A DNA stretch of 62,956 nt, filler included, from Stramenopiles sp. TOSAG23-6 (GCA_900128565.1; 6 parts of 6 records of this genome joined end to end with filler, not necessarily neighbours in it), one strand, 5' to 3'. Positions 1-62,956 are shown, counted from the first letter of the whole stretch. Translations and numbers: made by a program. The notes: generated by a model from the letters alone, not told the origin.

Positions 1-56
1 TTAGGTACAAAATTTCGTACGAAAAATAAATTCGAAATTGAAAAAAATAAAAATAC
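1..56 (-). mobile_element. Introner-like intron, 5' part (truncated by window)
   Basis: AT|GTATTTTT donor plus TTTCGTACGAAATTTTGTACCTAA core. Confidence 0.85.
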
Positions 57-1330
57 ATATCCCTTTTGAGTAAGAATTTTTCCAAGTTGACCTTCTTCGT
101 TGTAGTTATCAATGTCTTCGAATTGACCCACACAAATATGTATCGTGAAAAAATGATGTTAAAAAATTCGTTACAAAAACATTTTACGAAAAAAAAATAA
201 ATTCCGAAATTCAATTTTTAGAACGTACATTATCAACAAAAAGTTGAGGATATTTTGCTCGCTCGCCAATTTCAAAAAGCTCATTACGACGATCCTTTAA
301 CATCGAATCCATTCCATCAACAACTTCGAGTTTACCTGATGCGACTAAAGCCTCTTGGTTACCGCCCATGTAAAACAAAAAAGTTTGTCAAATTTGAAAT
401 TCGTTAGGGTAAATTTTAAAAAAAAGTTTGTCAAATTTGAAATTCGTTAGGGTAAATTTTAAAAAAAAGTTAGGTAAAAATTGTCATGAAAACGTACATA
501 TGTGTTGTAACCCAAGTAGTCACGTCGGATACCTGAGACCAAACTGGTTGTTGTTGCCCTGAAGTGATTAATAGGGTAACTTTATCTGGTGCATCGGTTG
601 AATCTGGAAGCGCATTCTTTGAAATTGATAATTTTTCAACTTCCTTCTCCACTGTTTTTTCAGTCACAACATCGTTACTTTTTGTCGTTGACGCGTTTTG
701 AGCGGTGTATGTTTCACCATGTGATACAGTAGTGACATTGCCACCTACTTCACCGCTGTAACCATTTCGAAAGTCGTATTTTTGCACTTGATGCGCAGCG
801 CCAGCTGACCGTAATTGTTTCTCAAGATCTTTTACAGTGATATCGTTACGACAGTGCGCTTTCAGAGTAAGATGAACACCGTCAAAATACTCTTTTACAC
901 CACTTGTGAAAGAAGATAACTTCGCCTTTACTAAGTTTGGCACATTTTCCCCAGTCCAACAAATAAAACCTAATTTAGTGCGTCTGCTGGTGACACCGCC
1001 ACGTTCATCGATACCAGTAACACGGAAACCAATAAAGGTTATCTCATCATCACTCACTTTAGACAAAAAATCAGGAACACCACCTATACAATGCGGGTAA
1101 TATGCGATGGTAATACAGGTAAATAAACAATAATTTTATCAAAAACAATTCAAGTATGTAATAAATACAAAATATGGTCCCCAACACTTGACTTGTAAAC
1201 GTTGCTTTTTTGGGTTTTTTTTCTTTTTTTTCAGAAAGTTACATATAACCCAACTACAATCTGTATCATCGGCATCAACAATCCGCTTCCATAACGCAGG
1301 AAGCTCCGCAGCAGGTTGGACAAGAGACAT
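57..1330 (-). CDS. Coactosin-like ADF-H domain protein with C-terminal SH3BGR/glutaredoxin-like domain (3' end may run off window)
   Basis: ADF-H motifs (WVIC, FIGFRV, RTKLGFICWTGENV, KAKLSS); after splicing 368-497 and 138-228 reads YPQLFVDNICVGQFEDIDNYNEEGQL. First intron (~1085-1170) boundaries unresolved. Confidence 0.7.
138..228 (-). mobile_element. Introner-like intron GT-AT (degenerate core)
   Basis: AAT|GTACGT...CGATACAT|ATT restores PQLFVDN-ICVG. Confidence 0.8.
368..497 (-). mobile_element. Introner-like intron GT-AT with internal tandem duplication
   Basis: AT|GTACGT...TTACAT|G joins two open frames; ~45 bp internal segment duplicated. Confidence 0.75.
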
Positions 1331-1708
1331 TCTAAGGTTCTACTTCACAAATGGCTACCAAAATCAAGAGTAAAAGAAGACAATCTCAAAAATATGGCCA
1401 TTCGAAAAAAAAAAATGTCAAAATCTGAAGAACAACACGAAAAATGAAAAATTATTTTGTGTGAATTTTGTAACGTTTTCCTCAGAACCTTCAGAAAGTT
1501 GTACTTAAGTATATACTAGTCAAAACTGAGCTTCAACACAACATCTTCTAAACAATCTGTGTTGTAAGGTGTATTTAGAACACTGGAACTCCCTTTTAGT
1601 GCACCTAGGTTGAACTAGTGATTATATTATTATTATTGTACAGAGATTTATAAAAAGTGAGAAATTGGCTGTTTAACTAGTAGAGAAACTCTCAAGATAT
1701 CAAAAAGA

Positions 1709-2590
1709 ATGGCTAATATGCAAAACGGTTTAGATATGGTAGAGGAGCAGGTACCTAAGGAATCACTCATTAAATCGGATATTCACACTCCCAATACAAA
1801 AGTAAATGAGTCTAGAAAGTTACCTTTCAGCGATGATACTCTCATAGACTCTTTGTGGGGTTTTACTACAGAAATTTTATCAGCGGCTCGGCAAGATTTG
1901 ACTAGTATAGGTGCAAAAGCTACACAAGATTTATCTGACTTTGGAAATATTCTCATTGCTGATACAAATGAAATTGCAAAGACAACAGCAACTTCATTGA
2001 GTGAACTCGCAAATATGTTACTCCAAGTAGATGATCTTTGTCATGAAAATGTTGACGAAGGAAAAGAAATGACTGATTTTTCAGAAAAAAGAAAACTTTT
2101 ACAGAAATCCTTCAAAAAAGTGTGTCCAAATGATTCACTATTCACAGAAAATAAATACGAGAAGAATAATTCTTCGACGCCAGTTGATTCTATAACAAAA
2201 CAGGCTATAGTGTCTCCAAATGTTAAAGAATGGGGAAAACATAAACAAAATAAATCTTGCTCTTTTCTAGGTCTCAAAACTGAAGGAGAGAGCGTTGTTG
2301 GAAATGCCGGTGGACTGAATGATATTCTTAGTCTCGCATTACAAGGACAACAATTTATTGATTATACTCTCAAAAGTGATGAAAATGGAGAAACTAAATC
2401 AGAGAAAAAAATAAAGAAAAGGAGTAAACCGCAAATATCTGAAAAACAAAAAAAAGCAGTACACCAAAACAATAAAGCATCATCTTCTGAAAATGATAGC
2501 TGGTGTGAAGTAGATTCTGAAGAAGATTCTTCGGGCATGAGCAGCTGGGGCGAAGTTAGTGATATCCCAGAGAAGGTACCTGTAGAATAA
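1709..2590 (+). CDS. Hypothetical protein (293 aa, acidic/Ser-rich C-terminus)
   Basis: Uninterrupted ATG-initiated ORF; no family recognised. Confidence 0.65.
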   Translation: MANMQNGLDMVEEQVPKESLIKSDIHTPNTKVNESRKLPFSDDTLIDSLWGFTTEILSAARQDLTSIGAKATQDLSDFGNILIADTNEIAKTTATSLSELANMLLQVDDLCHENVDEGKEMTDFSEKRKLLQKSFKKVCPNDSLFTENKYEKNNSSTPVDSITKQAIVSPNVKEWGKHKQNKSCSFLGLKTEGESVVGNAGGLNDILSLALQGQQFIDYTLKSDENGETKSEKKIKKRSKPQISEKQKKAVHQNNKASSSENDSWCEVDSEEDSSGMSSWGEVSDIPEKVPVE

Positions 2591-2700
2591 ATATTTACAA
2601 AAACACACAACTTTGTTGTAAGATTCAATAATAAACAAAATTTTATGGTGACTTTCTGAAGGAACTATTCGTCAATTTGTTTGAGTTTGTTCCTTTAAAT

Positions 2701-3084
2701 TTACTTCATTGGACCCTCTAATATTTCTTTACTAAACTCTACCTTTTCTTTCTTACGCCCACCAAATGTGATAGCACCTGTTTTCCCTTCGCGGATGGGT
2801 GTTTCCTCAATAAGAGCAGCTGCTGCCACACGTTCCTTTTCTTCTAATTTTTCTAACTCTACGCTTTTTATTGGGACAATCCGAGGTTTGCACAGCACTT
2901 CACTGAGATTCCCTTTTTCAGAATAAACTAAGCCTGCTTTAGGCAAAACATGTAATGTAAATGTATAAATAGAAACTTCAGTTGAGAATACAGTTTTCTG
3001 TAGGAAAAGATAATGCCTTGAGTACAATACCATCTACTATAAAAAGTTCATAAACTTACCAATTACTTCAGAGAGCTCTTCCAT
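2701..3084 (-). CDS. BBIP1: BBSome-interacting protein 1 (BBIP10)
   Basis: VLPKAGLVYSE...VLCKPRIVPIKSVELEKLE resembles BBIP1; short first exon MEELSE at 3067-3084 inferred. Confidence 0.8.
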
Positions 3085-3586: not shown

Positions 3587-5976
3587 ATGCCAGGAGCCAA
3601 GAGGTCCTCAAAAAGGACTAAACCTGGGCCAGAGCCAACTGCTTGTCGCTGGTGTCATTTAACTACATGCAAGCATTGTCAGTGTCCAAGTTACCGAAAA
3701 TGCACACATGCTCCAGGTGAACCATGTGCAAAAGAGCGTTATGGGCGACGCCGAGTTTGCAACACATGTGAACGTCGCAAGCTCCTTCACTCGCAGAACG
3801 GGAAAAGCAAGCGTAAGCGCTCGAACACGAACTCCCAACGAGGCTTAAAAAATCGTTCTAGAAAATATAGTAAAACCGCGAACAATATTGGATCAAATTT
3901 CAATAGTGATGGCCGTCACCGCCTAAATCGCAATATCGGCAATGAACACTTATTGAATAAGTATCATCCAGGTTTGAATTCTTCTTCTGGAATAGTTCAA
4001 TTAAGAGGGAGTAATTCACTTGCCCCGGTGATGGATGGGCTACCTGGTGGAGATTCTATGTTGGGAACACGAGGTAATATGAATGGTATTAATTCTCTAA
4101 CTGAAGTCATAACAAACCGAGGGAACGTTCTTAAACCAATGAAAAGTGTACCAACATTGGTACCGGGTGTGGGTTCTAAAGCTATGATGAGATCTATCAC
4201 AGAAGCTGATGCATTACTACGCCAAAATGGTACAAACTGTTTTCCTAGTACAGAGGGTATTTTACCTCAGCCAACTTTGGGTCGTATGAGCTCTTTTGAG
4301 GGTATTTTATCTCAACCATCTTTAGGTCGTGCGAGTTCTTTAGAAGGATTTTTATCAAGAGAAAATTCCTTTATATCGAGTGGGTGTGGATCTACTTCAA
4401 AACCTCGAGGAACCCCTGGAACGGGAGAGGTGTTGATGATGCGACAAAATTCACTACTGCCTAGTGGAACAAGTGCGTTATCTGGTACAGAAGCTATCAC
4501 AGCAGCAAGGACAAGTTTTACACGAGGTGGTTCTTTGAGTGGAGGTTTAATTGGTGGAGGGGATGTTACAAATCCATCTATGTTTGCTTCTCCTACTTCT
4601 CTACCTAGAAGAAGTTCATGTACGTTGTCATCATCAATTTCAATTTTTTTTTCACAAAAAAAATTCATACTTAACATATTTTTTCTTACATTATTTTTCA
4701 CAATACATTATGTGGTTTAGCACCGATGCTAGCATCAACTTCGAGTATTAATTCCATAAACAGTGTTATTTTTGATAATGTAAATAATGTAAATGGACCA
4801 GACGAAAACTTACAGCGTAGTAAAAGCTTGAGGTTTGAGGATTCTTGTGCGAAGGATATTGGAAATGTCTCAGATCTTTGGCATTTTTTTAAAGGAAATA
4901 GCACCCCATCAAGTCTAGGAATGCAAATGATATCTACAGGTGATTTGAATACTGGCTCTATATCGACGTACAGCGCATCTAGTCCTTCGTCCACTGAAAA
5001 AATGTATGTTTTATTTTTTTTCAAATTCGATTTTTTGTTTCGTACGAAATTTTGTACCTAACGATTTTAATGTTTGAAATATTTTTTCATAATCCATGAA
5101 TCCAAATCAAAATGTTGTGAAATTCGGTCAGAGTACATCATTTGATTCCTCTTTTTCCCGAAAGATGCTTTCCCCAATCATTTCTCGAAAAGATGATGAT
5201 TTATCGCAGGATACGCTTCGCCGTAGTCAACTCGATCGACAGTTATCTTTAGATCAGCAGTGCAAAAAAATTACATTTGAAAAATCCGTCACAACAAGTG
5301 TAGACAAACCTGCTTCTAAAGATCAAACGGTTGCTTCTATTGAACAATCGATGTCACCTGTGTCATCCGAAGGTGAGTGGAGAGAAGCGACAGATCCAAA
5401 GTCAGGTCGATTGTATTATTGGAATGTACATTTTCATCATACAAATTCATTTTTTTTTACTATGAAAATTTCGTACCTAACGAATAAAAAAAATAACCCT
5501 AATTTTTCACAATATATGTTCTAACACGTGACGTCACGTGGGACAATCCGGTAAAAAAATATACTACAGAAAGAACAGTGACAAACACGAAATTTTATGA
5601 GAAAGACGAGAAAAATTCAAGTTTTTTGTCGTTTGCTACAAATGAAAATTTCGAAGATAAAAAAAGCAAAACATATTTTGATACTTCACGGAATTTTTTT
5701 GAATCCCAGGAAATTCGAGATAATCCTAACCCTAATGAAAAAAATGGTTCAATAAAGAATAATGATAAATTTAAATGTAAGTTTAACCCAACTGCTTTAA
5801 AAGATGTAACATACCAAAAGAATGGCGTGGAAAATGGTAATGTCAACCCTAATAATGCTACATTAAAAAAACAAATTAGGAAACAAAATTTGAAAATGGA
5901 ACCAGAAAATGCCAAAAATAATGTGTGTCAAGACTTACTTGAGATTGAGAAAGAGAACACCGTTGTCGTTGTTTGA
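3587..5976 (+). CDS. Protein with Cys/His-rich N-terminus, low-complexity middle and a WW domain; 4 exons
   Basis: Four ORFs join in frame on removing 4620-4708, 5004-5097, 5426-5517; WW motif WREATDPKSGRLYYWN|VLTRDVTWDNP is rebuilt across the third intron. Confidence 0.8.
4620..4708 (+). mobile_element. Introner-like intron GT-AT
   Basis: AT|GTACGT...CAATACAT; phase 1 join is in frame. Confidence 0.8.
5004..5097 (+). mobile_element. Introner-like intron GT-AT
   Basis: AT|GTATGT, full core, ...AATCCAT; phase 2 join is in frame. Confidence 0.85.
5426..5517 (+). mobile_element. Introner-like intron GT-AT
   Basis: Removal restores WW-domain spacing. Confidence 0.9.
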
Positions 5977-6425: not shown

Positions 6426-8374
6426 ATGTCAGATTTGAAAGAAAATGGAACAGAAGAGGAAATGAAATTACTTGCACCCCCTCTACCACCAGAAAAGGCA
6501 ACCCTCACATGTCGATGTCCACAGGCTGGTAGTAGTCGGTTCACAAAAGACGCATCTGGGAATATATTACGTGGTGTAGACAAAAACGGCAATCCAATCG
6601 TGTACCTTGATATTTATACACCACAAGGTCTGCTGCCTGTACCAATTCCTCACGATGTTACACCAGGTGAGAAATTTGAAGTTGATTATATAGTTCGAAT
6701 GCCTTCTTCTCAAGCAAAAATGAATAGAGAAGGCACCGAGGAAAAGAGTGAAGCATCTTTGCCAGTTGCAATTGCAGAGTACACAAGACCTATGATATCT
6801 TCACCGCCAGTTCCGAAAGACGCCCAATGTAACATCTGTGGTAAGGGACCAAACGAACGGGCGGATATGATCCGTCCTTGTAATTGCGCAGGATATGTTC
6901 ACCGGAAATGTCTTGATAATTGGCGTGCTACACAACCAAATGCTTTTACTAAATGCCAGCTTTGTAATTTTAAGTATATTTTTGAGCAAGTAACTCAGAA
7001 AGAAGAAGACGAAAAGACTAAGAAATGCAAGCAGCATAAATTTCGAGCCCTTGTTGCTAGAGATGTCATCTTTGTCTTTTTGGGTATACAGCTTATTATT
7101 GTTGGTCTTGCAGTACTAATTTGGCTCCTGGATGGAAAACAACATTTTGGAGATGCTTATGAAAGAGAAAAGTTTCCTGACAAGTACCAATGTGATGAAG
7201 GTTCTTTAATCAAATTCTTTGGATGTCCGCGATATTTTGGCAAATCATTTTATTATGCTTGTGGTCTTATTGTATTCCTATTTACCGTAGGATTTACTGC
7301 GATGACAAGCTATTTCTGTTGCAGTGGAGAAAACGCCTGCGGTGAGTGTTGTTCTCAATCAGGTTGTTCAGGTTGTTATTGGGATAGTTGGGATTGCTTT
7401 TATTTATGGTATTGTTGCAGTGGAAATGGAGGTGGGAATTCATATTATAGTGGGAGTAGTTCAGGCTGTCAATTATGTTGTGAGTCATGTCAATGCGCTG
7501 ATGCTTCCTGTAGTAACGCTGGTAACTGTAACTGCGGTGATTGTGACGGTGGTGGTGGAGGTGATGCCGCAGCTTTCATTCTAATGTTTTTTCTTGTAGT
7601 AGCTGTCATAGTCGTTGCTATTTTTGTGGTGATTGGGGTATGGATTGTTCTATTTGCTATAGTATCTGCAATACAACGGATACTTCAAAAACATATGCAT
7701 GTACTGCAAAAAAGAGAGTTATGTAAAAAATGGGTTGTTGAAGACCAAGCCGGGCGATTAGCCCTTGATAAGGTTGAAACAGAATACATTTCAACTGCAA
7801 ACCCAGTCAGTGTTAACGATAATTTGAGTGGCGTACAAGTTCCTGCTGGTACTCTTTGTGTTGGTGACTTTGTTGCCGCACGATATCCAGGGTTTGATGG
7901 AAACGCCGAAAATCCATGGTTTCAAGCTGAAGTTACGGCGATTTTAACGAGTGGCATAGAATTGAAATATGCTGACGGTGATGTTAGTCAAATAGTAAAT
8001 GAAAAGTTCAGTGATGTCAAGTTCGCACCTATGGCTCCAGCAACTTTGGGTAAAGGTAGTCATGTATGTTTTATTTTTTTTCAAATTCGATTTTTTTTTT
8101 CATACTAAATTTTGTACCTAAGCTAACGAGTTTTTTTTTGAAATATTTTTCCAAAATACATCGATCAAATGATTTAGCCACGGCACGAAGTAGTTATGGA
8201 ATGGATTCCTTTTCTGTTTACGATATTCCTTTGTCCAAGTCTGATCGCAACCTTGGACTCGACGCAGCTGCTAAAGAGGTAAAAGATGTGCGTGCTAGAG
8301 ACTCGTACTTCAATGAGAATGTAGTTATTTCAGTTGAGGATGATTTAAGGAAGTCAGGAATTACTGATTGGTAA
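6426..8374 (+). CDS. RING-CH (MARCH-like) membrane E3 ligase with Cys-rich loop and Tudor/Agenet-like segment
   Basis: CNIC...PCNCAGYVHRKCLDNWR...CQLC; several hydrophobic helices; last exon joined via 8064-8161. Confidence 0.8.
8064..8161 (+). mobile_element. Introner-like intron GT-AT
   Basis: CAT|GTATGT...AAAATACAT; phase 0. Confidence 0.85.
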
Positions 8375-8463: not shown

Positions 8464-9877
8464 TTACAATATATTATCAACTTTATCTAAACACATTGCT
8501 AATAACGCCATTCGCAGTGATAGGCCACACCCTGCCTGTCGAAAATATGCTGCTCTATGTATTGTAGAAAAATATTTCAAAAAAAAATCGTTAGGTACAA
8601 AATATCGTATGAAAAAAAAATCGAATTTGAAAAAAAGTAAAACATACATGGTCATCATCAACAGCTACATCAATTTCATCCACTCTTGGCAGAGGGTGCA
8701 GAACGATCATATTGGAAGCAGCAAGCTTCATGTCTTCTGTATTTAATACATATAAACCTTTGCAGTTTTCATACTCCTCCAGACAGGAAAATCATGTATT
8801 GTGAAGAAATATTTTTTTCGTAAAAAAAAATCGTTAGATAGGGAATTTTTTTAATTTTAATTTTTTTTTTTTAGTAATTTTTGTATAAAAATGAAATTCA
8901 TCCTGAAAACGTACGTTCCCTTTGAATACGCGTCATATAGAAAACATCAGTTGAACCAATAATATCCCGATAATCTTCACTTTCTGACACTTGAACTCCG
9001 GCGTTTTTTAGTTCTTGAATGTATTTCTTTGGCATCCTTAAAATGTCAGATGTATTGTGAAAAATATTTTTTTTGTAAAATTTGTTAGGTACAAAATTTC
9101 GTATGAAAAAAAATTTAGACAAAAAATTGAAAAAAAATAAAACATACGTGCAACAAAATTGATTTTGACACCATCAAACCGAGAAAGCAAACGTGACAAA
9201 GAATGCACAGTGCGACCATTTTTCAAATCTCCCACCATTGTTACCGTTATATTATCAGGTGATTCAATGCCAAGCTCCTGGATTATTGTAAAAATGTCCA
9301 ACAAACTTTGTGTTGGGTGTTCACCAGCTCCATCTCCTGCGTTAATAACAGGGTTGTTCGCTAAGAGGGAAGCTGAGGCAACGCTACCTACTAGAGGGTG
9401 TCGCATTGCAATGATATTTGTATACTCCTCCATTATGCGAATAGTGTCCGAATATGACTCACCCTTTTGCGTAGAAGATGCTGTTGAATCTAGTTGAAGA
9501 ACTTGACCCCCAAGACGCATCATTGCAGCAGCAAAACTACTAGATGTCCGAGTTGAAGGTTCAAAGAAGAGGTTTCCAAGAATACAACCTTTGCAATAAT
9601 CAACTTGACTTTGAGTTTGTCTTACTTCATGCATATGCGCAGCGACTTTCATTACAGTTTCGATACTCTGGCGATCAAATTGATTGGAAGAAAGCACATG
9701 CGATTTTTTTAGAGGGTTCACCGAGTCACTCAACGGCACTCGCATGCTTGTCATTCTTTTTAGTTTTTGAAGTCGTGTATCGCGATCATCTGAAGGCAAA
9801 CTTATGGAAGAGAAAGCCTTGGATAACCCTGCATTCTGTGTGGGTAACCAACGATGAAATACTCGAATGGAACGCAT
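8464..9877 (-). CDS. pyrB: Aspartate carbamoyltransferase, monofunctional, with N-terminal presequence; 4 exons
   Basis: FFEPSTRT, MRHP, NAGDGAGEHPTQ, VGDLKNGRTVHSL, YMTRIQRERF, HPLPRVDEI, RAAYFRQA. Confidence 0.95.
8557..8647 (-). mobile_element. Introner-like intron GT-AT
   Basis: Restores VDDDH|RAAYFRQA. Confidence 0.92.
8794..8914 (-). mobile_element. Introner-like intron GT-AT
   Basis: C|GTACGT...AATACAT|GA gives the conserved Arg of QRERF. Confidence 0.92.
9050..9147 (-). mobile_element. Introner-like intron GT-AT
   Basis: C|GTATGT...AATACAT|CT gives the conserved Pro of FVAPDILRMP. Confidence 0.92.
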
Positions 9878-10162: not shown

Positions 10163-12202
10163 ATGATGCTCCGGACTTTGTTTAAGAATACGAAGCAGCA
10201 TTTCACAAAGAGGTCTTTAAATACCCTCAACTCAACGGCTGCAAAATGTACACCTCAAGCCAACGCAGAACTTGTTGAAGTTGAAGCAAAGGAAACTCAG
10301 TCAGCTAAACTCTGGGGTGGACGATTTGAGAAAGATACCGATGCTTCAGTTGTTTCCTGGGCAGAGTCGTTAACGTGTGATGAGGAAATGATTGTAGAAG
10401 ATTTATGGGGATCAATCGCACATGTTTCGATGCTAGGTCGACAAGGTGTCATTCCAGCGGATGAAGCAGCTCAAATTTTGACCACTCTTGTTGGTTTTCA
10501 AGACTCTGCCATGAGTGGGGAAATGGATTTTTTTGACAAAAAATTTTCCAACCATGATGACGTTCATATGAATATGGAAGCCCGTCTTATTGATGCTACG
10601 TCGATGGAAGTTGGAGGTAAAATGCATACGACACGTTCTCGCAATGATCAAGTACCTGTGAGTTCTCAGCTGCACACACGAAACCGGCTACTAGAATTGA
10701 GAGAAAACCTCGGAAAATCAATAACTGCTTTTCTTGATCGAGCCCGTGAGCCTGGTTCACTTGAAGCCGTCATGCCTGGATATACACACTACCAGCATGC
10801 ACAACCTATCTCAATTGCGTTTTGGATGTCACATTATGCCGCTGTGCTTGTGAGGGATCTGGAAAGACTTAAGGCTGCCTACGATGTCGTAGATGAAAAT
10901 CCTTTGGGTATTTTATATTCANTACAATTAATACTACTGTTTTTTTATTAGGTACAAAATTGCGTACAAAAAAAACTACATGAGCTCTTTTACAATGAGA
11001 CAACTATTTGAATATTACTTCTAATATATTTATATTACATAATTAACATATGACACACATTATAGGCTCAGGCGCAATAAGTGGTACGTCATTTCCTATA
11101 GACAGATTATGTATGTTTTATTATTTTTTTTACAAAAAAATCGAATTTATTTTTTGTACGAAATTTTGTACCTAACAATTTTTTTTAGATTTTTTTTCAA
11201 AATATTTTTCCAAAATACATTAACAACTGAACTTTTAGGCTTTCAAAATGTTCGCGCACACTCGCTTGATGCCACAGGTAACAGAGATTGGATGTGCCAA
11301 GTTCTCGCAGCTAATGCGACATTGCATAGCACATGGAGTCGTTTTGCTGGTGAGCTTATTACATGTATGTTTTCTTTTTAATTTCAATTTGTTTTTTCGT
11401 ACGAAATTTCGTACCTAACAATTCTTTTTGTGATTTCGTGTTTTTTCACAATACACGGAGTAGTTATGAGTATCGAACCGTTACTCTTGATGATGGTTTT
11501 GCGATGGGTTCGTCAATGATGCCTCAGAAGAAAAATCCAGGCCCATGTGAATTACTCCGAGGTCGTGCAGGTATCATGAATGGGTATCTAACTGCAGGAA
11601 TGACAATGGTACATGTATGTTTTATTTTTTTGAATTTCGAATTTAATTTTTTTTTCGTACGAAATTTTGTACCTAACGAATTTTTTACGAAAAAAAAAAT
11701 ATTTTTTTTACAATACATGGGCTTCCGTCTGGGTATAATCGCGACTTTCATGAAGAAAAAGAATTGCTATTTGCATCATGCTCAATGTACGTTTTCAAAA
11801 ATTGTTTTTCCTTTAGTACGAAATTTCGTACCTAACGCTTTTTTTTAGTGTTTGTTGGATGTTTTCAAAAATTGAAGTTTTACCTAATTTTTTTTTTTTG
11901 AACTAAAATGAAAATTCAATACCTAACAAAAACGTTTTTTTTATGTTTTATTTTTTTGAATTTCGAATTTATTTTTTTTTCGTACCACATTTTGTACCTA
12001 ACGATTTTTTTACTTACGAAAAATATGTTTCCCAATATATGGCGAATCGTGCAACTGAAGTTATTCCGTCGCTGGTAGCATCAACGACATTCAATACCGA
12101 TAGAATGAAGGAATTATGTGATAAAAACTTCATGACAGCGACAGAATTGGCTAATTATTTGGTATCAGATCATGATGTTCCTTTTCGAGCGACACATCAT
12201 AT
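10163..12202 (+). CDS. ASL: Argininosuccinate lyase (3' truncated at contig end)
   Basis: [83 protein letters not shown] across 6 exons. Confidence 0.95.
10908..11065 (+). other. Canonical GT-AG intron
   Basis: G|GTATTT...TATAG|GC restores NPLG-SGA. Confidence 0.9.
11111..11220 (+). mobile_element. Introner-like intron GT-AT
   Basis: Restores [12 protein letters not shown]. Confidence 0.92.
11365..11456 (+). mobile_element. Introner-like intron GT-AC
   Basis: T|GTATGT...AATACAC|GG gives the conserved Trp of ELITWSS. Confidence 0.9.
11615..11718 (+). mobile_element. Introner-like intron GT-AT
   Basis: Restores [12 protein letters not shown]. Confidence 0.92.
11787..12040 (+). mobile_element. 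Compound introner-like intron GT-AT (several partial copies)
   Basis: 254 nt, four TACCTAA motifs; phase 2 join is in frame. Confidence 0.85.
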
Positions 12203-12254
12203 GTATGTTTTATTTTTTTTTTTACAAAAAAATCGAATTTATTTTTCGTACGAA
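12203..12254 (+). mobile_element. Introner-like intron, 5' part (contig end)
   Basis: AT|GTATGTTTT...TTTCGTACGAA. Confidence 0.85.
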
Positions 12255-12354
12255 NNNNNNNNNNNNNNNNNNNNNNNNNNNNNNNNNNNNNNNNNNNNTT
12301 AATTAATTAANNNNNNNNNNNNNNNNNNNNNNNNNNNNNNNNNNNNNNNNNNNN
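12255..12354. other. Artificial contig linker
   Basis: N-run + TTAATTAATTAA + N-run, 100 nt. Confidence 0.97.
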
Positions 12355-13515: not shown

Positions 13516-16500
13516 TCATCGGATAAGAAACTCGCCTCCACTGTAATGAATTGCTGTCAGCAATCTTTGTCGCATTACTTCATCAGAGGAATATGGTGGC
13601 AACTCAATTTGAAAGAAGCATGTGTGCGCTAATGGTAGCCTGCTGGTATCCGAATTTCCCTTAGTTAGCTTAAACGGGCGTGGCCATACGCTTTCTCTTG
13701 GTAGTCTACTTCTACCCCACACAAATTGTAAAAACTTTGATTTATCGTCTTGGGAAAAACTTTTCAAAACACGCCAAAATCGCCGACATGGTGAATCGCT
13801 TGCGGAATACCCGTGGTATGTTGTGTGTTTCTTAATTATTTCAATATCGATATTTGGATTTCCACAAACACAAACCTCCAATTCATTCCAATTCAGTAAA
13901 CGCAATGCTCTGTCGGGAACAAGGGTCACAATACCACGACGTATAGCAGCAACCTGTTGATAACTTTCATGGAGTAAATGTATTTTTGAAAAATATTTGA
14001 AAAAAAAATCGTTAGGTACAAAATTTCGTACGAAAAAAATCGAATTTGAAAAAAAAATAAAACATACATGTTTACGAGCCCTATTTACGTACTCTAGACG
14101 ATTGACCCAAGTGACGGCCACGTCTCTTCCCCCAGGTACTAATTCTGAAATCCAGGTATGAACGTCCAAATCATTATCTATTGCAGCAGTTGATGGTCCT
14201 AAGGTACCTATAGTAAAATTTAAATCAGGGAATTTTTCATGAAATGCCTTTTCAATCTCATTAAGTTCCATAGAAGAGTTTACAAAATTTATATGTGAAT
14301 CTTCTACTGCTTCTCCCGATTTATTATCATAGTATGCTGAAAATTCTTCTATCGATGCAAGACGTCGAGCTTCTACTACATGCACTGAAGCTAATCCAGT
14401 TTCTTGTGATGAATTTGAGTTAGGGTTTGCTAATTGTTCCCAGACTAATGGTGCAAATTCAAATGGTAAAGCAGCTGATGTTCGCAGAGAAATTCCAATT
14501 AATTTGCCTAAAAATTCAAACATTTCTATCGATATTTTAGAAGTATGACGTGGATCCGGAAGAAACTTGTCATTGTTGGTACCTTCGCCATTGCGACCAT
14601 TTGGGCAGAGCATCATAAGATTGATACTTCGAGAATCCCCAGAGAAAAGCTCTAGAACAATTCTCGATAAAGTGTCTCTGTACAATCCTCCCCAATCTAA
14701 CCCTTCTTCGCCTTTAAATTTTACCGAAAAAAGACGATTTCTGGAATCTAATTTTGCTCGAAGTCGACGACAAGAAACATGATGAAGTCTTGAAAATGCC
14801 TGTGCAAATAGACCTCGTGAAAATTGCGGGTCTCTTAATTTTTCACCTCCCTCTAATGTATGCCTAACAAGTTCATTATCAAGTTGTACAACTAAATTTG
14901 GAGGTTTTGCATTTAAAGCTTTTTCAACCACTGATGCTAATAAAGTTGATAATTCATTTATTTTCTGTTGCAGTTTTTTCTTTCTGGAGTCAGATATTGA
15001 TTTCTTATCAACCTGATTATTAATTGATGTTATTTGCCGTCGGATTCGTTTTATACGCCTATCAGTGCTAGGATTGACCCATTGAGATGCCTCTATTGCA
15101 GACCGCAATAATTTGGTTTTGACTTCGCGGAAAACACAATGGCTTAATGTCTCTGACAACAAGCAACCTACTGACCAACTTGAAGAAGATGCCTGTAAGT
15201 CCACAAGCTCAATACAGTCTGCGAATTTTTTATTCCAGAATTGAAGTAAAGCAAAGCGATATCTCAAATCTGACAGTGGGACATTTGAGATTGCATGGTA
15301 CTTTAGCTTGCATTTCTTTGTTAATGTAACTTGATCGCAATCCATAATCAGCAGCGACCCACCCTTTTCAATTTCTTGATTATTACACCAACAAATTAAA
15401 GATACATCCATTTGATATTTCCAGTGAGACATCGCAAGAACTCTTTGTTCACAATCATACTTTGCACTTTTTGATTTCAGCCGAGAAGTATTCTTATCTT
15501 TGTAACCATTCGCGTGTAACCAAATTCTGGATGCCATCGTATCCGATAATCGTGAACCGTGTAATAAAGTGTACGATATCTCAACCACAGCAATCAAGGA
15601 ATCAAGTTGGGTCTCTGAAACTCCATCTTTTGTATGATGCAAAAGGCGGTTAATCAGTGGAGGGTCAAGACCAGTTTCACTGCGCAATCCGAAAAGGCCT
15701 CTTGAATATTTTTTGGTTGTTGGTAGAGAAGGCGGCCACGAGAAATGCCACGTATCGTGACCACCTTGAGCGCGAGAAGGAAATGCTTTTACTGCTGCTG
15801 CTAGTTCAGCAAGTCGTTGCAAAGCTGGTGGCAAAAAAATATCGCCTTTTTTCTTTGCATGATCTACCATTCTGACTACTGCAGTCGGAAGATATCGAAG
15901 AGGTCTTAAATCTAAAATACCAACATACATTTTGCGTTCATTGGATACCCCTTTCGACATTTTAGATTTTGTATTTGAATCACTGCTTCCAATATTCAAT
16001 GAAGATGTACTTCGAAACTTCTCAGGACTTGAGAGAAGCTGTGTTAGCACCGCTACAATGCGCGATTTATATGGAGCTCCAGGAGTCCGAAGATAGCGTG
16101 AAAGAGCCGCTACAACATCGGCACAATATACACCGTTTCTGTTGCACTTTAAATCTGTAGAAATACTACCTACATTTCTAGTATTATCATTGGTATTTCT
16201 TTGAATTAGATTTTTTTGTTGTTTTTGATGATTAAAAAAATGTACTTGGTGTTTCTGTCTTGCAAGCTTGTTTTCTTCTTCAAGTAAAACTCCAAGCATC
16301 CAGCACGCCCACTCCAGAGAAGGTGAGTTTAATACTTGCTCTTCCCGAAGCCATTGTAGGCCTCGCATCGGAGAAACATCAAATCGAAATCCCCAATCCA
16401 TTCCCCCAAAACGATTTGATGAGCATCGACTATTGTCAGTGTTGGTATATCTAGGAACAGACCAAAATCTGTACATGAAAGCTTCGTTATGCACTACATA

Positions 16501-24588: not shown

Positions 24589-24688
24589 NNNNNNNNNNNN
24601 NNNNNNNNNNNNNNNNNNNNNNNNNNNNNNNNTTAATTAATTAANNNNNNNNNNNNNNNNNNNNNNNNNNNNNNNNNNNNNNNNNNNN
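24589..24688. other. Artificial contig linker
   Basis: N-TTAATTAATTAA-N. Confidence 0.97.
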
Positions 24689-39861: not shown

Positions 39862-40140
39862 TTTAAGCTCTCTACTAAGATTTTTTACACTGTCATGAAG
39901 ATGGCAGAATTTTGAGATGTTTTTTCGGTACCTTCGATTAAATTTTGACATTTNGACCGAGAAAAAAAAAATTTTTTGGCACAAACCTGGAAAATGAGGA
40001 TATATATAGTCAGCGGCTGTCGGATCCATCTACTACGCCTACCTATATACAGCTAAAGGCGGTTGTAGATATATACTAACCAACAAACCAATTTACAAAG
40101 GCGATTTGTTATAATTGGAACGGGTATAGATATCTCAGAA

Positions 40141-46604: not shown

Positions 46605-48557
46605 TTATTCTTTTCGTTGAAGCAAAGAAGACGAGGTTTCTTCAAAACGTCTACGAACTTCACTTATCCACTCAGGCATTGATGATGACTGTTTCGTTTT
46701 CCCCCATTCATGTATTGAATGATATGTAGTTTCTTCTTTACTAGTTTTGACATTTTTTATTTTTCGTTGATTTAGTTTTATATTTTGATTTTGATTTGAT
46801 TTTCGATCTTTTTTATTTTCCTCATTTGCTTTTTGATTACATTGAATTACATTTTGCTTAATATTTTCCTGACACTGATTTTCTTTAGTACAACCTTCTT
46901 TCATAGAAGATACTTCAAATGCTGGTTTTTGCTTTATTAAACTATGCTTCACTTTTTTTGGAATGGTGAATTCTTCTGGATTTTCTGCATTGGCTTTCAA
47001 ACAAAGATTCCCAAAACAACCATTAGGAAAACTGTTCATACTATTATTATTATCATTCTTTTTCACAGAATCATTTTGTTGCTTTTTATTAATTTCGATA
47101 GCATCCAAACTATTTAGAACTGATGGTTCATGATCAGTAACTGTTGGTAGAACTGAATTTACTTTCTTCTCTATTTGTTTTTCTAGGTGATTTAGTCTCA
47201 TTTTTATCAAAGTAAAAGAGTCATTTTGCTGAGAAGCAGGTTTGCTCACAATGTTGTTGCGTTCCACTTTATTCATTCTTCCTTCTAACAATAGCATTCT
47301 AGCCGATAAAGTTTCCGCCACGTCTTTCATTTGTTTTGCAATTTCTGCAACTTGACGAGTTATACTTTCCAAGACGAAGACATTTTGTATATTTTGTGTA
47401 TTTTCTTCGTTTTGTGTATTTTGTGTATTTTGTATATTTTGTGTATCTTGTATATTTAGTGTATTTTGTATATTTTGTGTATTTAGTGTATTTTGTATAT
47501 TTTGTGTATTATGCGTGTTTTGTATATTTTGTGCATTGTGTATGTTTATTTTGTTTGTATATGTATTCTCCTCTTCTTTTTCTTTCTGTGGTACAACCGT
47601 CAGATCCAGAGGGGTAAAACTTGACGAATTTGAATCCGTACTACATTTCGAACCTAATGAATTTCGACTTTGCTGAGTGTCACCTTCTTTATTATTATCC
47701 TCTTGGACGAGCTGTTCAGGTTTATTCTCCAATGTATAACATACTCTATTTTCTTGAATTATATTAGATGTATTATCAGTTGCATAACGATTATTTGAAG
47801 AGTCATCAAAATTAATACTTTGCTGAAGCGGGCTAGGGTTAGGGTTAGTCATCGTTTTTTTCTGAAGCATTTCCTTATAAATACTCTGCTGTAGCGTAGG
47901 CTGCTTAACTTTTTCATCGACTCGTCGTTTCATCCATAACTTATCAGAAGATAATCTTGCCTCTGCACGAAAGACTGCGGAGTTTGTTGCAGCGCGACCA
48001 CTCTCTCGCTTTCCTTTCAAAGCATTCCGTCGATTCAATACAACTTTTTGTTTTTCTGTGATAAGTTTACCTTCCTTTACAGCTTTTACAGCCGCAATGC
48101 GTTGAGCCCTTCTTACATTTACATCAGTGGTATCCAATTTTCTGTCTTTTCTGGGTCTCTGAATATTCTTTAGTTTACGTTGACGCTCAGTGTGCTTTTG
48201 AAAACACAAATCAATGCACTCACAAAGAAAGATTATTTTCTGTTCTACAAAACCATTGGAAAGTAATTGTTGCGAGGTTAGCCGAAGCCGATGATTAAAA
48301 CTTCGCTGTATTACACGGAGGATTCCACTCACAAAATCTGAATCTGTCTTTGCATACAGGTCGAAACCACTATCAGTAATTAATCTAGCGACATGGCGTG
48401 AATAGTCAAGAAAAATATAGTGTAATAGGGGGAGAAAAGACTTTGGGTCACCAAGAGATAGAGATTCAAAAGAGATTTCACGAGGATACGCTATTCGCTT
48501 TAATTGCCCCTTTAATTTGATGAAATTGTTCTGCATGTCACCTGTAGAGTGTAACAT
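46605..48557 (-). CDS. CEP44: Centrosomal protein CEP44-like
   Basis: TGDMQNN..LKRIAYP..GDPKSFLPLLHYIFLDYS..DLYAKTD..GFVEQKI. Confidence 0.85.
   Translation of the reverse strand: MLHSTGDMQNNFIKLKGQLKRIAYPREISFESLSLGDPKSFLPLLHYIFLDYSRHVARLITDSGFDLYAKTDSDFVSGILRVIQRSFNHRLRLTSQQLLSNGFVEQKIIFLCECIDLCFQKHTERQRKLKNIQRPRKDRKLDTTDVNVRRAQRIAAVKAVKEGKLITEKQKVVLNRRNALKGKRESGRAATNSAVFRAEARLSSDKLWMKRRVDEKVKQPTLQQSIYKEMLQKKTMTNPNPSPLQQSINFDDSSNNRYATDNTSNIIQENRVCYTLENKPEQLVQEDNNKEGDTQQSRNSLGSKCSTDSNSSSFTPLDLTVVPQKEKEEENTYTNKINIHNAQNIQNTHNTQNIQNTLNTQNIQNTLNIQDTQNIQNTQNTQNEENTQNIQNVFVLESITRQVAEIAKQMKDVAETLSARMLLLEGRMNKVERNNIVSKPASQQNDSFTLIKMRLNHLEKQIEKKVNSVLPTVTDHEPSVLNSLDAIEINKKQQNDSVKKNDNNNSMNSFPNGCFGNLCLKANAENPEEFTIPKKVKHSLIKQKPAFEVSSMKEGCTKENQCQENIKQNVIQCNQKANEENKKDRKSNQNQNIKLNQRKIKNVKTSKEETTYHSIHEWGKTKQSSSMPEWISEVRRRFEETSSSLLQRKE
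47382..47542 (-). repeat. 9-bp coding tandem repeat (NIQ/NTQ)
   Basis: Repeated ttgtgtatt/ttgtatatt units. Confidence 0.9.
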
Positions 48558-49040: not shown

Positions 49041-49129
49041 ATGTAAAGAAATATTTGAAATTATAAATTTGTTAGGTACAAAATTTGGTGCGAAAAAAAT
49101 TAAAATTAAAATTCATGATGAAAATGTAC
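49041..49129 (-). mobile_element. Introner-like intron GT-AT before a short unidentified terminal exon
   Basis: AT|GTACATTTTCATCATG...GTACCTAAC...TTTACAT; a second partial copy lies at 49131-49195. Confidence 0.7.
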
Positions 49130-49195: not shown

Positions 49196-49295
49196 NNNNN
49201 NNNNNNNNNNNNNNNNNNNNNNNNNNNNNNNNNNNNNNNTTAATTAATTAANNNNNNNNNNNNNNNNNNNNNNNNNNNNNNNNNNNNNNNNNNNN
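49196..49295. other. Artificial contig linker
   Basis: N-TTAATTAATTAA-N. Confidence 0.97.
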
Positions 49296-49361
49296 TTTCG
49301 TACGAAATTTTGTACCTAACAAATTTTAGTTTTTTTTTTGAAATATTTTTCCAAAATTCAT
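49296..49361 (+). mobile_element. Introner-like intron, 3' part ending AT
   Basis: Core plus ...CCAAAATTCAT. Confidence 0.8.
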
Positions 49362-57514: not shown

Positions 57515-58994
57515 ATGAGTACAAATGGAGTTGTTCTTAAAGTGAAAGAAGCCACATTTTTTGCGATATGTATTGTAGGTTTCATCATTCGGAATCTAGT
57601 AGCACGGCAAACAAAAAAACAAAAAATTTCATGTATTGCTACATGGCGATTTGGAAGTATAGCTGTTGAAGCGGCTGCAAAGAAGCTTTGTGATGGGGGT
57701 TCTGCTTTAGATGCGGTTGAAATTGGCACACGTGCTGTGGAGTTATTATCTTTAGAAGAAAATGCTCAACAACTTTGTGTTGGTTGGCGTGGAAATCCAA
57801 GGTCGGATGGTAGAATGTATTATGATAGTGCAATCATGTGTGGGAAAACACATAGATATGGTGCTGTGATGTCAATGCCAAAGTGTAGTACTCCTGTTCA
57901 AGTTGCGCGAAGTGTTTTGCAAAATTCTCCACATAATGTTTTTGTTGGTGAAGGAGCCTTGAGATTTGCACAAGAATGTAGTGCTAACACTCTTACAATC
58001 ACCGATAAGCTGCATCCAAAAAGTCGTATAGAGTATAACCAGTGGAAAAAAAAACTCCAAAAGGGCAAAACTAGCAAGAATGTTCCACTTGGTCAGGGTG
58101 CACATTCTAATCAGAAGAAAGCATCGTCATTTCAACATGATACCGTTGGTGTGATTTGTTTAGATAGAAATGGAGATCTTGCTGTCGCTACTTCGACTTC
58201 AGGCTGGGCGTTTGTACGTGAAGTTCACGTTTTTCATCATGAATTTTAAATTTGTTTTTTTTTTTGGTACGAAATTTTGTACCTAAATATATATACTTTT
58301 TTTTTACATAAATATTTTTCACAATTTTTGCACCTCCTGGACGAGTTGGTGATGCTCCTCTGATAGGTGCTGGTTTATATGTAGATAATGATGTTGGTGC
58401 TGCTGTAACAACTGGAGATGGTGAAGAAATTATGAAACATTGTACGTCTTTCTTTCAGTATGATTTTTTTCCAATTGGATTTTTTTTGTACCAAAATTTG
58501 TACCTAACAAAAAAAATCAAATTTTTGAAATATTGTCTGACAATACATGTCTGTCGTTTCTTGTTGTTGAATTAATGCGGGGAAATAAAGAAACAAATTC
58601 TATATCACCTCAAGAAGCTTGTCAACTTGGATTGTTTCGAATGTTGCAAAAAGTTTCTCCTGAAATAAGAAAAAAATGTACAGTTGGTGTAATTGCAATG
58701 AATACGAGAGGTCTTTCAGGTGCCGCGAGTACAATATCTTCTACAAATCCGCATTTCCAAGAAGCTGCTAATGTACGTTTTATTTTTTTTTCAAATTTAT
58801 ATTTTTTTTTTTATAAAAATTTTGTACCTAACGATTTCAAATGTTTGAAATATTTTTTTACAAAACAGAAAGATCCTTTTTCTTTTGAATGGGCAAAATA
58901 TACTAAAATTATTAGTAAAGATGAAAATCCATTGTATGAAAAAGCAGATCTTATTTTTGAAAATGTACTAAACCCTGTTTTATTTAACCCATAA
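57515..58994 (+). CDS. Glycosylasparaginase / type-2 asparaginase (Ntn hydrolase); 4 exons
   Basis: [48 protein letters not shown]. Confidence 0.9.
58214..58329 (+). mobile_element. Introner-like intron GT-TT
   Basis: TTT|GTACGT...CAATTTTT|GCA restores [13 protein letters not shown] spacing. Confidence 0.8.
58442..58548 (+). mobile_element. Introner-like intron GT-AT
   Basis: Restores [15 protein letters not shown]. Confidence 0.88.
58773..58868 (+). mobile_element. Introner-like intron GT-AG, 96 nt, in frame
   Basis: AAT|GTACGT...AAAACAG|AAA. Confidence 0.8.
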
Positions 58995-61450: not shown

Positions 61451-61550
61451 NNNNNNNNNNNNNNNNNNNNNNNNNNNNNNNNNNNNNNNNNNNNTTAATT
61501 AATTAANNNNNNNNNNNNNNNNNNNNNNNNNNNNNNNNNNNNNNNNNNNN
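61451..61550. other. Artificial contig linker
   Basis: N-TTAATTAATTAA-N. Confidence 0.97.
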
Positions 61551-61613
61551 TTTTCGTACGAAATTTTGTACCTAACGAATTTTACAAAAAAAAAATATTT
61601 TTTCACAATACAT
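61551..61613 (+). mobile_element. Introner-like intron, 3' part ending AT
   Basis: Core plus CACAATACAT. Confidence 0.82.
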
Positions 61614-62312
61614 ATAGAGTATAAATCTCAATTTTATTACTTTGAAATTTATGATTATTTTCGTAAATTATTATTGACAGTTTCTGTAGCAGGGGTTTCA
61701 AATGAAAGTTATGATCAAATATTTTTTTCATTAGTTTGTGTAATACTTATGGTTGTGATGTAGGTTATTTTTTTATGTTTTGAAAAAAAAAAAATTTGAA
61801 TTTTTTTTTTTTTTGAAATTTTTTTTTGAATTTTTTTTTTGAAAATTTTTACTAAAAAAAAAAAAATATATATATATATATATATGTTTTCACAATACAG
61901 ACATATTACAGTACAACCATATGCACTACAATCAATGAATGTGTTTGCATTTATTACAATGATTGCATACATTTTTGTGTTGTTGATTACTTTATTAATG
62001 AAAAAAATAGGAAATACAAAAGCAGAATTTGTAGGTTTTTAGTATGAAATTTTGTACCTAACAAAATTTTTTTGTTTTTTTGAAATTTTTTTTTTTTTTG
62101 AAAATTTTTTTTTTGTTTTTTTTTTACTATGAATATTCAACAAAAATTGATTCTTTTTTTTTAAATCCTATATAGTATGTACATATCTAACATTATAAAC
62201 ACAAACATATTTATCACTTTTTAGAGTGTAGCAACAACAATACTGAATACATCAACAAATTTAGATGTGAATGATGTATGTTTTATTTATTTTTTTTTTA
62301 AATTTGAAATTG

Positions 62313-62343
<31 letters not shown>

Positions 62344-62842
62344 NNNNNNNNNNNNNNNNNNNNNNNNNNNNNNNNNNNNNNNNNNNNNNNNNTTTTTTTG
62401 AAATATTTTTCCAAAATACATAGTCATATGATTGTTCCAAATGTCAGTATTGAATCCTCAATTTCTAATTTATGTGGATTAGTATTAGTTTTTGTCATTT
62501 CGGCAATTTTATTATTATTTGTTTTTCTTGTTACTTGCCATATTTTAGGTATTAAAATACCATTTACAGTATTTAGTGATATTGAAATTATAAGTGGTGG
62601 TGTATGTCAATTTTCAATTTCGATTTTTTTTTTTTGGTTTTCGTACGAAATTTTGTACCTAACAAATTTTTTTTTTTTTCAATTTCAACATATTTTTCAC
62701 AATATTGGAAGGCTTAAGTAAAATGTCATCTGAATATGAAATGGAAAAAGCATTGCCACGTGTCACATCAGTTGGTTCACAAACACAAGGTGATCCACAT
62801 CCTGATCAATTACTCTCTGAAAATAAAGCAACAGCTGATATG
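61614..62842 (+). CDS. Fragment of a multi-pass membrane protein, intron-rich
   Basis: EYKSQFYYFEIYDYFRKLLL, HITVQPY and hydrophobic helices; exons separated by element copies; one junction crosses an N gap. Confidence 0.6.
61760..61900 (+). mobile_element. Degenerate introner-like intron GT-AG
   Basis: AT|GTAGGT...CACAATACAG|A; in frame. Confidence 0.7.
62276..62421 (+). mobile_element. Introner-like intron GT-AT spanning an N gap
   Basis: GAT|GTATGT...CCAAAATACAT. Confidence 0.65.
62602..62707 (+). mobile_element. Introner-like intron, apparent GT-TG
   Basis: GTATGT, full core, CACAATATTG|GAA; next exon open in phase 0. Confidence 0.6.
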
Positions 62843-62956
62843 GTACGTTTTCAAAAATTTTAAAAATTTTTAAAAATTTTTGAATTTTTTTACGAAATTT
62901 TTTTTTTTTTTTTTTTAAAATTTTTTTACGAAATTTTTTTTTTTTTTTAAAATTTT

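Follow-up and report, generated by a model that had tools for sequence, protein, structure and literature searches.

We analysed a 62,956-base stretch of DNA from Stramenopiles sp. TOSAG23-6 (GCA_900128565.1), hereafter the window, and identified a high-copy family of short elements that interrupt the coding regions of unrelated genes, begin with GT and most often end in AT. Our favoured explanation, to which we assign a probability of about 0.7, is that these elements are an introner-like family, resembling miniature inverted-repeat transposable elements, in a MAST-3-type stramenopile whose U2-type spliceosome accepts A-T at the 3′ end of an intron.

A repeated element family in unrelated genes

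Curation of the window yielded 34 complete copies, distributed over at least 14 unrelated genes and 72–254 nt long, with a median of ~98 nt (Table 1). An nhmmer profile built from 26 curated and aligned copies returned 44 matches in the window at E ≤ 1e-3, the 26 seeds matching by construction; the profile misses a few diverged copies, such as 138–228. A 25-base core has 30 matches at ≤3 mismatches compared with 0 in 100 shuffles, and one internal stretch of 25 bases, for which no splicing function is known, has the same sequence in 10 copies. Two subtypes that grade into one another can be distinguished, a young one of the form GTATGTTTTATTTTTTTTC...CCAAAATAC+AT and an older one of the form GTACGTTTTCAT...CACAATAC+AT, and the 12 youngest copies share a mean pairwise identity of 85% (range 72–97%, 66 pairs). 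The host genes are unrelated and include housekeeping functions, among them aspartate carbamoyltransferase, argininosuccinate lyase (the "ASL" of a preliminary description of this DNA), DDX24 and a NOP2/RsmB-type methyltransferase, with further copies in genes for a DHHC palmitoyltransferase, a PRMT-like methyltransferase and CEP44. Together, these observations support a high-copy, young element family spread across unrelated genes.

To follow the coding frame, we deleted each insert from GT through the two bases past its AATAC-like motif in 13 gene models containing 30 inserts. One continuous, near-full-length open reading frame (ORF) resulted in 12 of the 13 models, which hold 29 of the 30 introns, and these ORFs fall 0–19 codons short of the maximum possible. 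When all intron lengths were shifted by −2, −1, +1 or +2 the ORF was lost in those same 12 models, and a further model, to which 138–228 was added, is fully open. Whole-gene chains were used in place of a simpler longest-run frame test, which mislabelled multi-intron genes with short exons and linked 18 of 21 informative copies. Reading of the ORF chains places 42 of the 44 profile matches in the sense orientation of the host gene, the two antisense matches both being fragments, and at 8 junctions the predicted protein is colinear with homologues to the exact residue. These results support the view, drawn from genomic sequence and homology, that the copies act as introns: they lie in sense orientation, their removal restores the frame, and the joined exons align with related proteins at the level of single residues. 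The preliminary description had counted about 45 related copies, nearly all in sense orientation, had named conserved housekeeping hosts (ATCase, ASL, DDX24, NOP2) among unrelated genes and had stated that removal of GT through AATAC+2 restores the frame at nearly every complete copy; our profile counts, gene identities and frame chains bear out each of these points.

Splice signals and intron boundaries

We counted signals on 33 complete copies, with 138–228 outside the tabulation, and measured branch sites on 32. The 5′ site is GT in 33 of 33 copies, followed by A at +3 (31 of 33), G at +5 (29 of 33) and T at +6 (32 of 33), giving the consensus GTAYGT(TTT); 138–228 likewise starts with GT, which brings the count to all 34 complete copies. 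The last CTAAY branch A, in the motif TACCTAAC, lies a median of 36 nt from the 3′ end and between 25 and 48 nt in 29 of 32 copies, a T-run occupies positions −12 to −11 and upstream, and the last twelve bases of the intron read TTCACAATACAT. An extended 3′ motif, TTCACAATAC+AT, is kept even in diverged copies. The 3′ dinucleotide across the 34 complete copies is AT in 28, AG in 2, TT in 2, AC in 1 and TG in 1, and three more 3′ ends that lie beside assembly gaps are also AT. Of the features that define U2-type introns, a GTRNGT-like 5′ site, a CTRAY-type branch site 20–50 nt upstream and a pyrimidine run are present and the terminal AG is found in 2 of 33 copies. Canonical GT-AG introns coexist with the family, as in the first lyase intron, an intron at 43974 in a MYND-domain gene and 61760–61900, and the ratio of non-AG to AG introns in this window is ~35 to 6. 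Since the introns end in AATAC+NN, where NN is mostly AT, the major spliceosome would have to cut after A-T.

Much of the splice-site anatomy in the preliminary description stands. Its acceptor tally (29 AT, 3 AG, 2 TT, 1 AC, 1 TG) is close to the curated one, its statement that non-AG introns outnumber canonical ones agrees with the ratio in this window, and the U2-type donor and branch signals that it noted are both present. Its proposal that the spliceosome tolerates any terminal base is too broad. Of the 33 copies, 30 carry A at −2; at −1, 29 carry T, three G and one C; and the long 3′ motif is conserved. What the acceptor allows is narrower: A at −2 and, in most copies, T at −1, in the setting of an extended conserved motif. 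The 8 junctions set against homologues exclude splicing to a nearby AG; the first AG past the branch site falls at the intron end in 2 of 32 copies, and in the remaining 30 it would keep the frame in 9. RNA structure was tried and rejected as a guide to the splice site, as folding of six copies was no better than that of shuffles (z −1.35 to +0.51); the four with AT/AT flanks formed an end stem of 5–6 bp, and those with unequal flanks formed none.

The exact boundary is ambiguous in most copies. In 23 of 33 copies, typically of the form ..AT/GT....AC/AT/.., the registers GT..AT, TG..CA and AT..AC yield the same mRNA, an apparent duplication and a boundary ambiguity that the preliminary description had not noticed. 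Because equal flanks give identical mRNA, only copies with unequal flanks decide the register. Four such copies could be set against homologues, two in aspartate carbamoyltransferase and one each in argininosuccinate lyase and DDX24, and in all four GT..NN restores conserved residues. NN..AC replaces Pro by Ser in one, Trp by Arg in another and Leu by His in a third, and introduces a stop codon in the fourth. At 9147, GT..AT gives VA[P]D as in 7 of 7 homologues, NN..AC gives Ser, and no other register gives a Pro codon; at 8914, GT..AT gives RE[R]F, again as in 7 of 7 homologues, and NN..AC gives a stop codon. All 7 homologues share the residues encoded at the three carbamoyltransferase junctions (P, R and R). 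In the lyase, four junctions are colinear with a full-length relative and the numbering of Protein Data Bank (PDB) structures leaves exactly one residue for the split codon; at 11365, GT..AC gives Trp (6 of 7 homologues carry Trp and 1 Phe) and AT..AC gives Arg. At DDX24 41077, GT..AT gives LPIL/HRLLEER, compared with LPILHRLLEEM in the relative P0273, and TT..AC gives LPIHH; the last Leu of LPIL matches 3 of 3 PDB helicase alignments that reach this position. The GT..NN register assumed in the preliminary description is correct at 4 of 4 testable copies.

These boundaries bear on an alternative in which the true register lies two bases upstream (AT..AC), or in which the elements are U12-type introns of the minor spliceosome. 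U12 introns carry the 5′ consensus RTATCCTT and a branch site ~10–25 nt from the 3′ end. The 23 ambiguous copies can all be read as AT..AC, and the branch motif, ACCTAAC, is similar to the consensus of U12 branch sites. GT-AT is moreover a rare minor-intron subtype, and the related stramenopile Blastocystis has hundreds of minor introns, mostly AT-AC (bioRxiv 10.1101/2022.09.24.509304). The elements share termini and tolerance of a non-AG 3′ end with U12-type GT-AT introns as described there, but differ from them in 5′ consensus and branch distance: the 5′ site is GTAYGT with G at +5 and T at +6 and not RTATCCTT, and the median branch distance exceeds the short U12 spacing. The NN..AC register moreover fails at 4 of 4 copies with unequal flanks, including 11365, whose upstream flank is AT. 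We consider this alternative highly improbable.

As a separate observation at the 11365 site, the lyase relatives P0123 and P0125, both fragments, carry inserts of 11 and 37 residues at the codon split by this intron, and the closer relatives P0121, P0122 and P0128 are uninterrupted there. The inserts suggest that another lineage has an intron at this position, probably read through by gene callers.

Insertion, removal and independent data

The exon context of the insertions is C-A-T/intron/G, with C at −3 in 13, A at −2 in 26, T at −1 in 29 and G at +1 in 22 of 33 copies; a filled site reads CAT-GTAT...ATAC-ATG and the emptied site CATG. In 23 of 33 copies the intron ends in the same dinucleotide that precedes it (permutation p 0.011), and both TT-ended copies have TT upstream (p 0.033). 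The acceptor dinucleotide is probably a copy of a target-site duplication. Composite or nested copies (11787–12040, 38976–39166 and 28590–28753), together with the antisense fragments, point to insertion at the DNA level. The antisense fragment 10946–10976 lies within the first lyase intron (~10917–11060, + strand), a canonical GTATTT..TTATAG intron. The other, 40823–40883, is translated as 13 residues in the public DDX24 models and looks like an exonised antisense insertion.

We infer U2-type removal at the RNA level, DNA transposition with a 2-bp duplication and a 3′ motif that defines the cut. Under this model, an element of ~90–110 nt would bring its own U2-type 5′ site (GTAYGTTTT), a strong branch site (TACCTAAC) ~36 nt from its end and a T-run followed by the conserved 3′ motif TTCACAATAC. 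It would insert as DNA at a short target, usually C-AT-G, with the two middle bases apparently duplicated, and the intron would consist of the element plus the downstream copy of the duplication (GT...AATAC+NN, NN usually AT), its excision returning the gene to its pre-insertion sequence. The major spliceosome would then cut after A-T, less often A-G and rarely other dinucleotides, with the extended 3′ motif, and not an AG, fixing the position of the cut. A more far-reaching version holds that the major spliceosome is AG-independent and cuts two bases past TTCACAATAC with the A at −2 kept, that sense insertions are scarless and near-neutral, and that thousands of copies make GT-AT the majority intron class of the genome; this we hold to be an even bet.

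Several results weigh against the transposon-and-splicing model. Most of the duplication signal comes from AT/AT pairs, with two TT/TT pairs besides, and the flanks of two young copies differ by one base (AC/AT and AT/AC). The terminal inverted repeats extend over 4–6 bp only (GTAT/ATAC; 6 bp including the duplication), and no transposase or autonomous partner is found among the window genes. The rule "first CAT or CAG after the branch site" explains only 19 of 32 intron ends and was rejected, and the composite copy 38976–39166 (191 nt) fails the frame rule, requiring a change of −1 or +2. Comparison with contigs of three RNA-library runs and one DNA run, made for the N-free segment 24689–33994 and dominated by repeat cross-joins, returned no exon-exon joint at the predicted junctions among the matches listed. 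In the same comparison the RNA-library contig X5 record 11 spans 26717–26805, X8 record 26 runs 15 nt into 25350–25421 and X8 record 32 begins inside 31994–32089. These intron-holding contigs may represent pre-mRNA or carried-over DNA; intron retention would look alike.

The first group of these points favours a different origin for the same spliceosomal introns, in which GT..AT introns arose without a DNA transposon, through reverse splicing or intron transposition or as a long, selected species-wide consensus, and the upstream AT is a preference. The short inverted repeats, the lack of a transposase in the window and the unequal flanks of the two young copies are in keeping with this view, and the blocks that are conserved coincide exactly with the 5′ splice site, the branch site and the 3′ motif, all of them signals for splicing. 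Against it, the 25-base stretch identical in 10 copies has no known role in splicing, nested and composite copies are present, the antisense fragments are not expected from reverse splicing into mRNA, and flank and terminal dinucleotides co-vary, with both TT ends matched. We consider an origin of this kind unlikely and continue to favour an introner-like family. The preliminary description had proposed a mobile-intron burst, and this can be retained in part: a high-copy, young family with the properties of mobile introns is upheld, no spliced joint was seen among the RNA-library matches listed, and the tolerance attributed to the spliceosome was overstated.

The RNA-library contigs and the structure of the assembly bear on a further possibility, that the elements are excised from DNA in the manner of the internal eliminated sequences of ciliates, or are not removed at all and mark disrupted host genes or assembly artefacts. 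RNA-library contigs that hold intron sequence with no spliced joint among the matches listed would fit either form, and the window is a patchwork of contigs, chained through N44-TTAATTAATTAA-N44 linkers, in which 5 of 6 gap blocks adjoin cut-off element copies (12255–12354, 36901–37000, 49196–49295, 61451–61550 and 62344–62392); at the sixth, 24589–24688, an element copy lies 28 nt off. The gaps adjoin element copies, it appears, because a high-copy repeat breaks short-read assembly. DNA excision would, however, need neither the sense bias nor the spliceosomal signals, and metagenome DNA contigs keep the introns in place: a 2024 seawater metagenome DNA contig covering 30414–31306 passes through introns 30839–30941 and 30995–31101, other DNA contigs enter 26717–26805 from both sides, and no element-free DNA form is found among the matches listed. 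Without removal, single-copy housekeeping genes would all be broken, and artefacts or random insertions would not be expected to allow exact frame restoration in 29 of the 30 introns. We give these readings very little credence.

RNA-level removal, as proposed for the introner-like family, is inferred from orientation, signals, frames and homology. Stretches of the comparison that lack RNA cover are uninformative, and no copy number or expression level is read from depth. One variant position within the element is carried by 113 distinct contigs of a seawater DNA run and by 53 and 51 contigs of two RNA-library runs. Two further contigs give weak hints that we do not count: X8 record 27 ceases to fit the window after 26714, 2 nt short of the donor, and its remaining 43 letters do not fit the intron, and X7 record 19, from the same study, begins at 26804, 2 nt before the acceptor. 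An upstream-exon query for a transcript-derived protein spanning 26717 scored 0 of 49 candidates, and no 100%-identical transcript-derived protein was found for the carbamoyltransferase or DDX24 genes. At 25364, inside 25350–25421, the fit to the window ends for a DNA contig (X2 record 1) as well as for an RNA-library contig (X8 record 26), and it seems that the natural population carries a different version of this intron.

Outside the window, a scan of metagenome contigs with an exact 25-mer gave 0 matches, and a gapped pattern joining the branch site to the 3′ motif gave 43 loci, of which the profile identified one as a true copy and 42 as chance. The true copy (L029, 2475–2580, − strand) lies in a different gene on a 3.2-kb marine contig of 35% G+C, has the form AT/GT..AT and restores a Trp codon when removed. 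The window itself has ~35% G+C and is gene-dense, with long ORFs on both strands; it is present in a small 2015 DNA run and in 2024 seawater metagenomes, with parts in marine metatranscriptomes. The best named relatives of its DDX24 gene are from oomycetes, and one database protein that is 100% identical to a window gene is labelled "GSMAST32.ASY1.ANO1.1631.1 assembled CDS". We take the source to be an AT-rich, gene-dense marine MAST-3-type stramenopile. An Rfam search of the window returned no family at gathering score.

Among the hosts of family copies, the gene at 38560–40029 (− strand), which matches the N-terminal region of DNA-PKcs, ends after ~430 codons and carries the sole family intron that fails the frame test; it may be a decaying gene, or the composite element may contain an assembly error. 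Intron density is very uneven among genes, and a 3,706-codon open frame at 13516–24636 (− strand) has a single family interruption (13978–14067). A tandem array of GTATATTTTGTGTATTTT-like units at 47387–47560 (+ strand) lies inside the span of the long minus-strand ORF with the CEP44 domain.

Table 1. Family copies, fragments and comparison introns in the window, with the dinucleotide upstream of each intron, its ends and the evidence for its boundaries
Position	Strand	Type	Length (nt)	Upstream flank	Intron ends	Host or remark	Evidence
138–228	−	complete	91	AT	GT..AT	cofilin-domain gene	with 368–497 also removed, one 285-aa ORF (maximum 285)
368–497	−	complete	130	AT	GT..AT	same cofilin-domain gene; internal duplication	
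4620–4708	+	complete	89	AT	GT..AT	three-intron gene	738-aa ORF of 743 possible
5004–5097	+	complete	94	AT	GT..AT	AATCC variant	frame test
5426–5517	+	complete	92	AT	GT..AT	AATAT variant	frame test
8064–8161	+	complete	98	AT	GT..AT	RING-variant gene	frame test
8557–8647	−	complete	91	AT	GT..AT	aspartate carbamoyltransferase intron 3	junction R in 7/7 homologues
8794–8914	−	complete	121	AC	GT..AT	carbamoyltransferase intron 2; informative flanks	RE[R]F; homologues 7/7
9050–9147	−	complete	98	AC	GT..AT	carbamoyltransferase intron 1; informative flanks	VA[P]D; homologues 7/7
11111–11220	+	complete	110	AT	GT..AT	argininosuccinate lyase	homologues
11365–11456	+	complete	92	AT	GT..AC	lyase; informative flanks	junction Trp
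11615–11718	+	complete	104	AT	GT..AT	lyase	homologues
11787–12040	+	composite, two copies	254	AT	GT..AT	lyase	colinear with P0122 over junction
13978–14067	−	complete	90	AT	GT..AT	~3700-codon gene	frame test
24716–24831	+	complete	116	CT	GT..AT		frames link; 5′ exon too short to inform
25350–25421	+	short, diverged	72	AT	GTGACG..AT		frame test
26717–26805	+	complete	89	AT	GT..AT		1135-aa ORF of 1142 possible
28590–28753	−	composite	164	GG	GTGTGT..AT	DHHC gene, last intron	frame test
28817–28926	−	complete	110	AT	GT..AT		frame test
29018–29122	−	complete	105	AT	GT..AT		frame test
30839–30941	+	diverged	103	AT	GT..AT	methyltransferase gene	six introns out, 602-aa ORF of 609 possible
30995–31101	+	AG-ended family copy	107	AC	GT..AG		frame test
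31302–31391	+	complete	90	AT	GT..AT		frame test
31766–31857	+	complete	92	TT	GT..TT	flank equals terminal dinucleotide	frame test
31994–32089	+	complete	96	AT	GT..AT	AATGC variant	frame test
32288–32379	+	complete	92	AT	GT..AT	top profile match	frame test
37418–37520	−	complete	103	AT	GT..AT	racemase-family gene	424-aa ORF of 424 possible
38976–39166	−	composite	191	AT	GT..AT	short DNA-PKcs_N-like gene	frame not restored
41077–41175	+	complete	99	TT	GT..AT	DDX24; informative flanks	LPIL/HRLLEER
49041–49129	−	complete	89	AT	GT..AT	5′ region of CEP44 gene	ambiguous frames
58214–58329	+	diverged	116	TT	GT..TT	flank equals terminal dinucleotide	frame test
58442–58548	+	complete	107	TT	GT..AT		frame test
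58773–58868	+	AG-ended family copy	96	AT	GT..AG		frame test
62602–62707	+	complete	106	GT	GT..TG	equal-length GT..AT register possible 2 nt upstream	
61760–61900	+	family-like 3′ end (CACAATAC) with AG	141	AT	GTAGGT..AG		
1–58	−	5′ part, cut by window start		AT	GTATTT..		
12203–12254	+	5′ part, cut by gap		AT	GTATG..		
36813–36900	+	gap-cut copy		AT	GTATG..	NOP2-type gene	
37001–37054	−	5′ part, gap-cut		CT	GTATG..		
49296–49360	+	3′ part after gap			..AATTC+AT		
61551–61613	+	3′ part after gap			..CACAATAC+AT		
62276–62421	+	copy split by 49-N gap		AT	GTATG .. CCAAAATAC+AT		
62843–62956	+	5′ part, cut by window end		TG	GTACG..		
10946–10976	−	antisense fragment				inside canonical GT..AG lyase intron	
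40823–40883	−	antisense fragment				DDX24 N-terminal coding region, read in frame	
43871–43974	−	non-family canonical intron			GTACGT..TACTAAC..CATAG	MYND finger; end coordinate approximate	restores GKTC/QKLDWK

Known systems and consequences

The closest known counterparts of the family are classical introners, the introner elements of Amoebophrya and the introns of Fritillaria. Like introners (Micromonas, Aureococcus and the surveys PMC9860276 and PMC12130899), the elements are short, non-autonomous and high-copy, form whole introns in unrelated genes and are sense-biased, and introner target-site duplications often supply part of the splice site. Known introners are reported with familiar termini (PMC9860276, PMC12130899), whereas here ~28 of 34 copies end in AT and the 2-bp duplication would itself be the acceptor dinucleotide. 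The 2025 survey of this pair expects AG or AC 3′ ends in its curation and drops families with odd sites that lack RNA support. The elements of Amoebophrya (PMC7789003) are likewise repeated non-canonical introns with direct repeats that overlap the boundary, an ambiguous boundary and transposon-like spread; they carry highly variable motifs at both ends, inverted repeats of 8–20 nt, direct repeats of 3–5 nt and predicted hairpins, whereas here the U2-type 5′ and branch sites are textbook, the 3′ dinucleotide alone departs and the inverted repeat is 4–6 nt. Assignment to euglenid-type nonconventional introns or to the hairpin introners of Amoebophrya was rejected, as the six folds gave no pairing of the intron ends beyond the 5–6-bp stem. 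In the tunicate Fritillaria borealis (PMC13326754), most introns also break the GT/AG rule and are nonetheless removed by the U2 spliceosome, and altered recognition of the 3′ end has been proposed; this species has divergent U2AF paralogues and GT/AG in fewer than 10% of its introns, with departures at both ends. In contrast to that animal, GT is kept here in all copies and the acceptor alone is shifted, to one dominant dinucleotide.

A full-text literature search found no report of such introns in MAST-3 or uncultured stramenopiles. The available text of PMC5778133, on single-cell genomes of uncultured stramenopiles including MAST-3, contains neither "splice" nor "canonical", and the main text of the two introner surveys, as available to us, does not mention MAST or stramenopiles, their species lists being placed in supplements.

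Public gene models for this assembly force GT-AG introns, using the second GT of GTATGT or a later GT together with an AG within the next exon. In P0001 (8440–10039, − strand) and P0271 and P0272 (40069–42966, + strand), conserved residues are lost or altered at 4 of 4 family introns checked: NFVA-RM-MPKK replaces NFVAPDILRMPKK, VFYMTRIQRERFSCLE is lost, HVSAYF replaces HRAAYF, and 12 residues are lost. The DDX24 locus has two public models, of 737 and 720 aa. Because models of this kind impose GT-AG ends and drop or change conserved residues, systematic damage is probable in the gene sets and orthologue tables of an abundant ocean lineage and in the mapping of its metatranscriptomes.

Few signals in eukaryotic gene expression are as strongly conserved as the terminal AG of introns. 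If the more far-reaching version of our explanation is correct, introns that mostly break the rule would be found in a third independent lineage, in addition to a tunicate and a parasitic dinoflagellate, and this would be the cleanest case of the three, with only one position of the splice code moved. It would provide a natural single-variable experiment on 3′ splice-site choice in a free-living protist, with a normal intron start and branch site and an AT end, and would inform on the roles of U2AF and second-step factors and on how the first and last intron bases pair. For the origin of introns, it would describe a transposon that makes its own insertion harmless, the spliceosome removing the element together with one copy of the target duplication.

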